Origin: an uncultured Erysipelotrichaceae bacterium
Lineage (GTDB): Bacteria > Bacillota_I > Bacilli_A > RF39 > UBA660
Reading direction: 5' to 3'
DNA length: 64,000 nt
Assembly: GCA_902797995.1 (NCBI GenBank)
Contig: CADBUX010000002.1
Span: forward strand, 7,031 to 71,030
Shown here: piece by piece, positions 45,872 through 47,478 of the stretch
Position numbering within the stretch: position 1 is the first letter of the stretch
Layout: the number at the start of each line of letters is the position of its first letter
Position numbers and translations under genes: made by a program
Notes under the pieces: model-generated
Databases searched by the model: none
What the model saw: only the letters and a program-made list of their open reading frames with translations
What the model was told of the DNA's origin: nothing

Positions 45872-45900
45872 TTGACAAAAGAATTAGAATATATTATATT
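45872..45900 (+). promoter_or_regulatory. Promoter of the tRNA operon (TTGACA-17-TATATT)
   Basis: TTGACA at 45872-45877 and TATATT at 45895-45900, about 25 nt upstream of the first tRNA. Confidence 0.6.
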
Positions 45901-45925: not shown

Positions 45926-46002
45926 GGGCGATTAGCTCAGTTGGTTAGAGCACTTGCCTTACAAGCAAGGGGTCGGGAGTTCGAGTCTCTCATCGCCCAC
46001 CA
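45926..46002 (+). tRNA. tRNA-Val (anticodon UAC)
   Basis: Cloverleaf folded by eye; anticodon loop CTTACAA; encoded CCA end. Confidence 0.9.
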
Positions 46003-46046
46003 TTTTTAATGCCGAAATGGCTCAATTGGTAGAGCAACTGACTTGT

Positions 46047-46675
46047 GGGATAGAGTAGTAATTACTTTTGAACTATCTTGCACCTTTATGAAGAAATTCA
46101 TAAAGTGGACGTCGCTAATTCGGGGAAACCTTCATAAGCAGAAGGTGGTGGTTGTTTGAATTGTTTATATTGTAACAAACCATTAAAAGATAATAACAAA
46201 TATTGCAATAATATTTGTCAAGCCAACTACAGATATAGGGATTATATTTCTAAATGGAAAAGTGGCAAAGTTAATGGTTTGAAAGGAAAGTATCAGATTT
46301 CCAATCATATTAGAAAATATTTAATGATTAAGTATAAACATAAATGTTCAAGATGTGGCTGGAGTAAAGTTAATCCTTACACAAAAGTAATTCCCTTAGA
46401 GATAGAACATCTTGATGGTAATTACTTAAATAACAATGAAGATAACCTAGCACTTTTGTGTCCTAACTGTCATTCACTTACACCCACATACAAGGGAGCA
46501 AATAAGGGAAACGGGAGAAAGGATAGGAAAAAATATAGCTTGTATGGCAATCCCGAGCTAGGTTAATACCGAGTGTAGAGACTTTATACGACGGGCCTAA
46601 GTCTTTAATGATATGGCTAAGAGAAAGTCCAGACTACAAACAACGATAGTTGGTAGTGAAAACTATAGTAGTATG
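46047..46675 (+). mobile_element. Group I intron (IC3-like core) with internal HNH endonuclease ORF
   Basis: P1 is 46044-46053 / 46073-46082, with exon U46046 opposite G46080. P2 hairpin 46084-46105 has a GAAA loop. AATTCGGGGAAACC (46117-46130) and GTGTAGAGACT (46573-46583) are core strings. P3 is 46110-14/46589-93, P7 is 46580-84/46625-29, and the P9 hairpin is 46633-46657. The terminal nucleotide is G46675. Confidence 0.8.
46156..46566 (+). CDS. HNH homing-endonuclease-like protein encoded within the intron
   Basis: TTG start follows GAAGGTGGTGG, and an in-frame TAA lies at 46135-46137 upstream. An N-terminal CxxC...CxxxC is followed by the HNH core LEIEHLDGNYLNN..DNLALLCPNCH. Confidence 0.8.
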   Translation: MNCLYCNKPLKDNNKYCNNICQANYRYRDYISKWKSGKVNGLKGKYQISNHIRKYLMIKYKHKCSRCGWSKVNPYTKVIPLEIEHLDGNYLNNNEDNLALLCPNCHSLTPTYKGANKGNGRKDRKKYSLYGNPELG

Positions 46676-46723
46676 AATCAGTAGGTTCCGGGTTCAAGTC
46701 CTGGTTTCGGCACCATTTTTTTT

Positions 46724-46807
46724 GGAGCGGTAGCGAAGTGGTCAAACGCGGCAGACTGTAAATCTGTTCCTTCGGGTTCGATGGTTCAAATCCACCCCGC
46801 TCCACCA
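46724..46807 (+). tRNA. tRNA-Tyr (anticodon GUA), long variable arm
   Basis: Anticodon loop CTGTAAA; CCA end. Confidence 0.9.
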
Positions 46808-47447: not shown

Positions 47448-47478
47448 AAAAAGCCTTAAGGGCTTTTATTTTTTTTAT
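47448..47478 (+). terminator. Terminator of the tRNA operon
   Basis: AAAAGCC-TTAAG-GGCTTTT followed by a long T-run. Confidence 0.8.

Follow-up and report, generated by a model that had tools for sequence, protein, structure and literature searches.

A probably mobile group I intron with an HNH endonuclease gene in the anticodon loop of tRNA-Thr(UGU) from gut Bacillota

A 64,000-nucleotide stretch of contig CADBUX010000002.1 (assembly GCA_902797995.1, uncultured Erysipelotrichaceae bacterium), referred to here as the window and numbered from its first letter, contains a run of tRNA genes from which one member seems to be missing: a default ARAGORN scan of the window, with introns off, finds nine tRNAs between 45926 and 47436 and no tRNA-Thr. 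Is the gene absent, or is it present in a form that such a scan does not report? The initial annotation of this DNA had proposed the second, namely a tRNA-Thr(UGU) split in its anticodon loop by an IC3-like group I intron that encodes an HNH endonuclease. This central claim is now backed by covariation, by identity to known IC3 cores, by matches of the open reading frame (ORF) to HNH families, and by the finding of intron-plus and intron-minus alleles. In our reading the element is very probably a mobile IC3 group I intron, inserted between nucleotides 36 and 37 of tRNA-Thr(UGU) and carrying its endonuclease gene in loop L5. All features of the window described below lie on the forward (+) strand.

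When introns were allowed, ARAGORN called a tRNA-Thr(tgt) at 46011–46715 and placed an intron of 629 nt after tRNA position 36. The 5′ exon (46011–46046) supplies tRNA nucleotides 1–36 and ends with the anticodon U34 G35 U36, and the 3′ exon (46676–46715) supplies nucleotides 37–76, including the encoded CCA. The joined exons (36 + 40 nt) give the canonical fold of a 76-nt tRNA-Thr(UGU), as had been put together from the same two segments in the initial annotation. Read from the sequence, the exon-intron junctions are unambiguous (...CTTGT|GGGATAG...AGTATG|AATCAG), and the exons show no sign of decay.

The intervening 629 nt (46047–46675) are assigned to an IC3-type group I intron from the ARAGORN call, an intron alignment, covariation and comparison with IC3 cores. 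For the test of the fold, 51 non-redundant introns were aligned, 18 of them with the ORF interior excised (the window included) and 33 ORF-less, and a P1–P9 model written on the window sequence was scored on this alignment. Standard pairs are formed in 98.3% of 3,293 cells, as against 35–39% when the 3′ partners are slid by 1–3 columns. Both sides have changed at 31 of the 66 pairs (366 cells), and the covariation score is 0.336 versus 0.151 for shuffles, with none of 500 shuffles reaching any of the observed measures. Compensatory changes are found in P1, P2, P3, P5, P6, P8, P9, P9a and P9b, while P4 and P7, which belong to the catalytic core, are invariant.

The two ends of the intron are clearly marked. 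P1 is a 10-bp helix (46044–46053/46073–46082) formed with the internal guide ...CUAUCUUGCA; 98% of its cells pair, and three of its pairs show compensatory G-C to A-U changes. Its U46046–G46080 wobble, the mark of the 5′ splice site, is a U-G pair in all 46 sequences with letters at that column, and a small hairpin (46055–57/46063–65) is found within the P1 loop. At the 3′ splice site the terminal guanosine (omega-G, 46675) is invariant in 51 of 51 aligned introns. The P2 hairpin (46083–46107; GAAA tetraloop at 46093–46096) has changed on both sides at 8 of its 10 pairs, and P3 (46110–46114, CGUCG, with 46589–46593, CGACG) is 100% paired, three of its five pairs being compensatory. A sixth P3 pair, A46109–46594, was dropped because 46594 covaries with 46618 as part of P8. 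P4 pairs 46119–46125 (UUCGGGG) with 46551–46557 (UCCCGAG) in 99.7% of cells; its 5′ strand matches the UUCGGCG of Azoarcus and is flanked by the junctions J3/4 (CUAA, before) and J4/5 (AAA, after). The P6 hairpin (46558–46573, CUAGGU ... ACCGAG) is 99.6% paired with three of five pairs compensatory, and the ORF stop codon lies in its loop. In P7, G46578 and GACU at 46580–83, with A46579 bulged between them, pair with 46626–46630 (AGUCC) in every cell; the string GUAGAGACU ... AGUCC is common to all classical IC3 tRNA introns compared, and G46580–C46629 would be the guanosine-binding pair. P8 (46594–46618) has an 11-nt-receptor-like motif, CCUAAG ... UAUGG, and compensatory changes at five of its seven pairs.

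P9 takes the form of a three-way junction made up of P9 (46633–37/46668–72), P9a (46641–44/46649–52) and P9b (46653–57/46662–66, with a GAAA loop at 46658–61), which together contain eight compensatory pairs. The coordinates first given for P1, P2, P3 and P7 lie within 1–2 nt of the covariation-supported fold. The P9 hairpin of the initial annotation (46633–37 with 46653–57) has to be replaced: only 77.9% of its cells pair, and one of its pairs is broken in 31 of the 51 introns. P5 is a long-range, covarying pairing of 46129–30 (CC) with 46546–47 (GG), and its basal pair is seen as G-C, A-U, C-G, G-U and U-A, with double changes in 27 cells. The 5′ strand spans 46129–46134, including A46134, and the 3′ strand UAUGG (46543–46547) falls within the ORF codons Y-G. 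The P5 receptor of the window, CC-UUCAU.../...UAUGG, has a variant 5′ half, the canonical version being present in ORF-less and some ORF-bearing homologs. The periphery is that of an IC3 intron: P5abc is absent, L2 and L9b are GAAA loops, and P8 has the receptor motif.

Where the intron belongs among known introns was examined with comparison sequences taken from the seed alignment that has been published for bacterial tRNA introns. The window intron and the Azoarcus Ile, Arg, Thr and Asp introns have in common AAUUCGGxGAA, CAAxxCCGAGC, GUGUAGAGAC, CCUAA...UAUGG and AGUCC. Two strings that the initial annotation had likened to those of IC3 tRNA introns, AATTCGGGGAAACC (46117–46130) and GTGTAGAGACT (46573–46583), each occur once in the window and can be aligned to published intron cores (Azoarcus, Arg, Thr and Asp). 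Among the closest known systems is the IC3 intron of Azoarcus sp. BH72 pre-tRNA-Ile(CAU) ('Ile2.5Ug'), which has the same insertion point (nt 36/37), the same U-1 and the same omega-G as the window intron. The two also have in common AAUUCGGxGAAACC, UAUGGCAAxxCCGAGC, GUGUAGAGACU, CCUAAG...UAUGG and AGUCCAG, as well as GAAA loops on P2 and P9. However, the Azoarcus intron is ORF-less, about 205 nt long, GC-rich and proteobacterial, with a short P1, a simple P9 and AAA as J3/4, whereas the window intron combines a 10-bp P1, into which a hairpin is inserted, with a three-way P9, CUAA as J3/4 and a 411-nt HNH ORF in L5. Its P9 junction closely resembles those of the Arg.5Ug and Thr.3Ug introns.

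The preprint by Williams (bioRxiv 2020, doi 10.1101/2020.01.27.920355) describes a growth in the tRNA settings of group I introns from 4 to 21, among them Thr.5Ug, Thr.3Ug, Thr.2Ug and Tyr.4Ug. In the nomenclature used there, the window intron is filed from its sequence as an IC3 tRNA intron of the class 'Thr.5Ug' (loop CUUGU|AA). The tRNA-Thr introns catalogued in it (Thr.5Ug Rba53, Thr.3Ug Mti5 and Thr.2Ug) lie in tRNA-Thr anticodon loops like that of the window, and the insertion position is already included. They differ from it in other respects: the Thr.5Ug seed has the anticodon GGU and is GC-rich and ORF-less, and in the UGU seed (Mti5) the intron lies at 34/35. The preprint gives no endonuclease analysis, remarking of introns longer than about 400 bp that they 'may contain' genes.

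It is the gene inside the intron that sets the window element apart. The ORF (46156–46566) is inserted in L5 and encodes 136 amino acids, starting at a TTG that follows a Shine-Dalgarno-like AGAAGGUGGUG (46139–46149, read from the sequence; homologs have GGAGG or GGGGG and then ATG there) and ending with a TAA inside L6. It matches PHROG HNH families at E = 5e-18 and Pfam HNH at 21.3 bits, just under the cut-off, and C64, C67, H85, N97, C102, C105 and H106, which include the CxxC pairs, are invariant in the family and all kept in the window ORF. An AlphaFold (AF2) model has a confidence (pLDDT) of 82.9, and its best fold matches in the PDB are the HNH nucleases McrA, Cap5 and Cas9-HNH (Foldseek), all of them weak, at E ~2e-3 or worse. 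Sequence and fold searches of the PDB returned weak generic HNH domains and no characterised homing-HNH relative, nor any close solved relative by sequence. The ratio of nonsynonymous to synonymous divergence (pN/pS), with synonymous sites near saturation, is 0.34 among intron-encoded copies and 0.32 among free-standing ones, and the ORF is under purifying selection.

The initial annotation was right about this 136-residue HNH ORF and its ends but had placed it in the 'P5/P6 periphery'. It in fact fills L5, takes in the 3′ strands of both P5 and P4, and extends into P6. Its tail, ...Y-G-N-P-E-L-G-stop, encodes in turn the P5 3′ strand, J5/4, the P4 3′ strand (codons N-P-E) and the P6 5′ strand. 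Across the 12 codons that overlap the core, pS is 0.27 versus 0.63 elsewhere. Homologs vary between Y-G, Y-A and Y-D in step with CC, GC and UC forms of the P5 5′ strand, which argues that the amino acid there is set by RNA pairing. In some homologs there is no stop codon at this point, and reading continues through GUAGAGACU to give '...VETL...'; free-standing homologs end in ...KKYSK, without the ribozyme-overlapping tail. A local 'P5 hairpin' (46129–46145) that had been thought to hold the Shine-Dalgarno sequence is no better than shuffled sequence (z = -0.26). As a conserved stem that sequesters the Shine-Dalgarno sequence it is unsupported, being predicted in about half of 10 homologs with z from -0.7 to +1.3 versus shuffled. 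The P5 5′ strand (CCUUC) is able to pair locally with the Shine-Dalgarno region (GAAGG) within 46128–46146; a switch between translation and splicing by way of this pairing is possible but unsupported.

If the element is mobile, related loci should be found with and without it, and the initial annotation had suggested a survey of such alleles. Both kinds turned up. The exact spliced 76-nt tRNA is present uninterrupted on at least 98 metagenome contigs and on none of the viral contigs. Many of the metagenome contigs are syntenic with the window, from an upstream S1-domain gene through the whole tRNA array, and one of these empty sites (L202) is 77.7% identical to the window over 1,562 nt across the junction. 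A precise empty site is L055:1265–1890, in which the tRNA-Thr is identical to the spliced exons of two intron-bearing loci (L066 and L036). Its flanks are 92–97% identical to those of L066, and the alignment breaks exactly at 36/37.

The intron has also been found outside tRNA-Thr. At two loci, L021:2070–2379 and L022:2066–2386, an ORF-less copy lies in the neighbouring tRNA-Tyr(GUA) at CUGU|AAA, and this copy is 96–100% (L021) or 93–94% (L022) identical to the core of the adjoining Thr intron. The tRNA-Thr and tRNA-Tyr sites both have UGU 5′ of the splice site, and the sequence likeness suggests recent ectopic spread between sites that share it. At a further locus (L028:1380–2620), intron segments such as GGAAACATTAAAGGTGGACATCGCTAATTCGGGGAA are tandemly duplicated in Thr-type and Tyr-type copies, either as an assembly artefact or as a real local duplication.

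How common the element is can be judged from the relatives of its ORF, of which there are at least 1,912 at E ≤ 1e-3. The best 120 are mostly metagenomic, are all at least 61% identical, and are 115–191 amino acids long (most about 130–150). HNH sites were confirmed at more than 530 places in GTDB species-representative genomes (Bacilli, 'Mollicutes', Erysipelotrichaceae and metagenome-assembled genomes, MAGs, of Clostridia) and at more than 540 on IMG/VR contigs. The best 80 sites of each set were taken as the locus sample. With introns allowed, ARAGORN reports for 71 of 162 loci a tRNA-Thr(UGU) that is interrupted where the window gene is, including 67 of the best 80 reference-genome loci. 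Two viral loci that it labels 'tRNA-Tyr' (L083 and L084) are really split tRNA-Thr genes, and L085 and L020 are further cases, which brings the total to about 75 of 160. The suggestion that a Thr(UGU) intron in Bacillota would be a novelty was overstated, given these reference Bacillota sites and the tRNA-Thr introns already described in the 2020 preprint. The element is not unique but widespread in gut Bacillota; what is new is an HNH gene that overlaps the ribozyme core of an IC3 tRNA intron.

Four arrangements of gene and intron recur. As in the window, the HNH gene lies inside a 578–659-nt intron in Bacilli-type MAGs with a Val-Thr-Tyr-Gln... array and in four viral loci. In Clostridia MAGs with a Lys-Glu-Thr array, the intron is ORF-less (217–243 nt) and the HNH gene stands free about 65–100 nt downstream. 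Another form has an ORF-less intron of 205–209 nt with a short P1 and a convergent free-standing HNH gene, and in a fourth (L055; L035/L087) a free-standing HNH gene adjoins an intron-less tRNA-Thr. ORF-less introns of 205–243 nt with an adjoining free-standing HNH gene at tRNA-Thr(UGU) are seen in Clostridia MAGs, at L033–L082 (e.g. L036:1086–1890), L026, L027, L032, L040 and L051.

The viral loci in which tRNA-Thr(UGU) is split by an HNH-bearing intron are four IMG/VR contigs (L083, L084, L085 and L115). The intron of L083 lies within a tRNA array, and those of L115 and L085 are flanked by phage-family proteins (ssDNA-binding protein, phrog_420, phrog_850). Three other phage genomes gave partial matches. 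In Kolpuevirus OQ198718.1 (L261, 74982–78037), an 87.5% match to the 3′ core of the window intron (46619–46673) lies between a coding sequence annotated 'GIY endonuclease' and the second of two annotated 'replicative DNA helicase', and it probably marks an unannotated group I intron splitting DnaB in a crAss-like phage. An unannotated stretch of Enterococcus phage iF6 (MT909815.1:41122–41311) has 71% DNA identity to the HNH ORF, and Pelagibacter phage HTVC120P (19755–19808) has an 86% match to the intron 3′ core within a stretch annotated as a capsid gene; both may represent more HNH genes or introns that lack annotation.

Taken with the fold and the alleles, a course of events can be proposed for the window. 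The split gene is the second of a ten-gene tRNA operon (Val-Thr-Tyr-Gln-Lys-Leu-Ser-Met-Asp-Phe) that lies between a promoter-like TTGACA-17-TATATT (45872–45900; 26 nt upstream of the tRNA-Val at 45926 and identified by consensus match alone) and a closing terminator-like hairpin (47449–47467); the adjacent tRNA-Tyr (46724–46807) has no intron. The tRNA-Thr would be transcribed within this operon, its guide sequence would pair with the anticodon UGU to form P1 with the U-G wobble at the splice site, and the P3–P9 core would fold. Exogenous GTP would then attack after U46046, and omega-G46675 would dock so that the exons are ligated into a normal tRNA-Thr(UGU). The HNH protein, for its part, would nick or cut an intron-less tRNA-Thr(UGU) near the insertion site, and repair from the intron copy would spread the element by homing.

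Several findings weigh against this account, and three other explanations draw on them. The tRNA halves might be a dead remnant around an unrelated insertion, as could be concluded from standard tRNA and Rfam scans that report neither the gene nor a group I intron. The Rfam family RF00028 (Intron_gpI) gave no match on the whole window at its gathering threshold and none at E ≤ 10 on 45950–46780 or on the 3′ core half alone, and none of 16 related loci matched at the gathering threshold. Because P4 and P7 never vary, covariation is uninformative on these two helices, for or against. The RF00028 search had been put forward in the initial annotation as a check on the intron region, and although it found nothing at any threshold tried, the intron is supported otherwise. 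An ORF-less homolog (L036:1140–1343) does match the full model, at 34.9 bits (E = 1.8e-7; gathering score 50), and according to Williams (doi 10.1101/2020.01.27.920355) the RF00028 seed has no bacterial sequences and tRNA introns were sought at 18–20 bits. A match to this model serves to detect group I introns and does not define them. The miss is a sensitivity problem, worsened by the 411-nt insertion, and does not count against a group I intron; with a model that is blind to the window intron, the lack of a covariance-model hit would be a false refutation. The exons are canonical and identical to uninterrupted tRNAs elsewhere, and dozens of species have kept the same split gene, its ribozyme fold maintained by compensatory changes. 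A dead remnant is thus effectively refuted, and we give it next to no weight. It is also conceivable that the intron splices while the window copy is immobile and vertically inherited, its HNH gene being a weakly expressed or decaying passenger. The TTG start aligns with ATG in all homologs inspected and truncated 80-residue proteins occur in the window protein's 90%-identity cluster, so the window copy could be poorly expressed; its score for Pfam HNH (PF01844), 21.3 bits, is also 0.1 bit below the cut-off of 21.4. On the other hand, the window ORF is full length with every invariant family residue in place, its pN and pS against relatives are 0.20 and 0.71, TTG is a legitimate start in Bacillota, and the exact protein is encoded on four independent contigs. 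An immobile passenger therefore seems unlikely to us.

A finding that does not fit simple homing into tRNA-Thr is the empty site of L055, where a free-standing HNH gene is still present downstream of the intron-less tRNA-Thr. An enzyme encoded beside an identical empty target either makes no lethal cut there, only nicks it, or has another target, and L055 tells against the simple view that the site must have the intron in order to be protected. The target might accordingly lie elsewhere in or beside the tRNA array (compare seg and mob of T4), the gene having landed in L5 by chance and the intron having spread by hitch-hiking or reverse splicing. Besides L055, such an explanation would account for the viral homologs, most of which are free-standing with no intron core nearby, and the ORF-less tRNA-Tyr copy with the same UGU 5′ of its splice site would fit RNA-guided reverse splicing. 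It has more difficulty with roughly 75 of the 160 loci, where the HNH gene lies either inside a tRNA-Thr(UGU) with its split at this position or no more than about 100 nt away from one, in three arrangements and two gene orders. The simplest explanation of this association is that tRNA-Thr(UGU) contains the target. I-HmuI and other known intron HNH enzymes are, moreover, nickases that tolerate their own alleles. A target elsewhere is in our estimation quite unlikely, and a mobile intron whose HNH enzyme would act on tRNA-Thr(UGU) itself is strongly preferred.

The variety of arrangements raises the further question of whether they represent steps in the making of such an intron. The nuclease of the endonuclease-bearing cyanobacterial tRNA intron, I-Ssp6803I, is of the PD-(D/E)xK family, unlike the HNH of the window, and we know of no description of free-standing relatives of it. 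That intron lies in tRNA-fMet of Synechocystis PCC 6803, another tRNA and another phylum than in the window, and a 2014 review (PMC3984707) cites tRNA-fMet (Bonocora & Shub 2001) as the one endonuclease-bearing bacterial tRNA intron. The review also notes that no phage intron then known lay outside protein-coding genes, and it presents the collaborative-homing model, whose arrangement has been proposed as a precursor of endonuclease-bearing introns. Collaborative (trans) homing pairs are T4 mobE with the nrdB/I-TevIII intron (PMC2790892) and S-PM2 F-CphI with the psbA intron (PMC6083498). These pairs concern phage protein-coding genes and are known in a single state each, whereas the HNH family and the intron described here are present in four states or more at a single tRNA site of cellular genomes, although L055 does not fit a simple protective role. 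The phage intron enzymes I-HmuI, I-TwoI and I-PfoP3I (PMC3428280) are likewise HNH proteins encoded in a group I intron loop, but their host genes encode proteins. In what our search of the literature on tRNA-Thr group I introns, HNH and Clostridia/Firmicutes returned, including a 2025 intron and endonuclease-gene database paper, neither the HNH-bearing form nor its free-standing relatives are described.

The window itself, with its ORF inside the intron, is not a collaborative-homing arrangement; the related loci L026–L082 are. The ORF-less Clostridia intron and its neighbouring HNH gene look like the precursor state, and the window looks like the end state. More tentatively, since we hold it to be somewhat less probable than its opposite, the HNH/intron family could be a natural series of the birth and spread of a mobile group I intron at one tRNA site. 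The series would begin with a free-standing HNH gene beside an empty tRNA-Thr(UGU) site (L055) and go on to a free-standing HNH gene beside an ORF-less intron, tandem or convergent (Clostridia MAGs). The HNH gene would then be captured in L5 (Bacilli MAGs and the window), where its C-terminus would become joined to strands of the ribozyme core, and ectopic copying into the neighbouring tRNA-Tyr, with the same UGU 5′ of the splice site, would follow. Phage tRNA arrays would serve as carriers and could act as vectors between gut Bacillota.

In any case, the family seems large and mostly uncharacterised, with members in gut Firmicutes and some phages, and seems to include several stages of mobile intron formation. 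With it, endonuclease-bearing tRNA introns are no longer limited to the one cyanobacterial case, in tRNA-fMet, that the 2014 review cites. It also provides a clean case of protein codons overlapping ribozyme helices, and suggests that group I introns can reside in phage tRNA genes, where according to that review none had been seen. For annotation, the consequence is that many gut Bacillota MAGs will seem to be without tRNA-Thr(UGU), given that neither the tRNA nor the intron is picked up by standard tRNA and Rfam scans; MAG annotations thus probably under-report this tRNA. A single copy of tRNA-Thr(UGU) is usual in small Bacilli genomes, and if the window gene is single-copy, decoding of ACA and ACG by tRNA-Thr(UGU) would depend on ribozyme splicing. 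The free-standing, intron-encoded, empty-site, tRNA-Tyr and phage states together make up a rich comparative system for the joining of endonuclease gene and intron. If the direction of the series and the target specificity are as proposed, it would offer the fullest natural setting in which to test the endonuclease-invasion and collaborative-homing model, and would be the first in a cellular tRNA gene.

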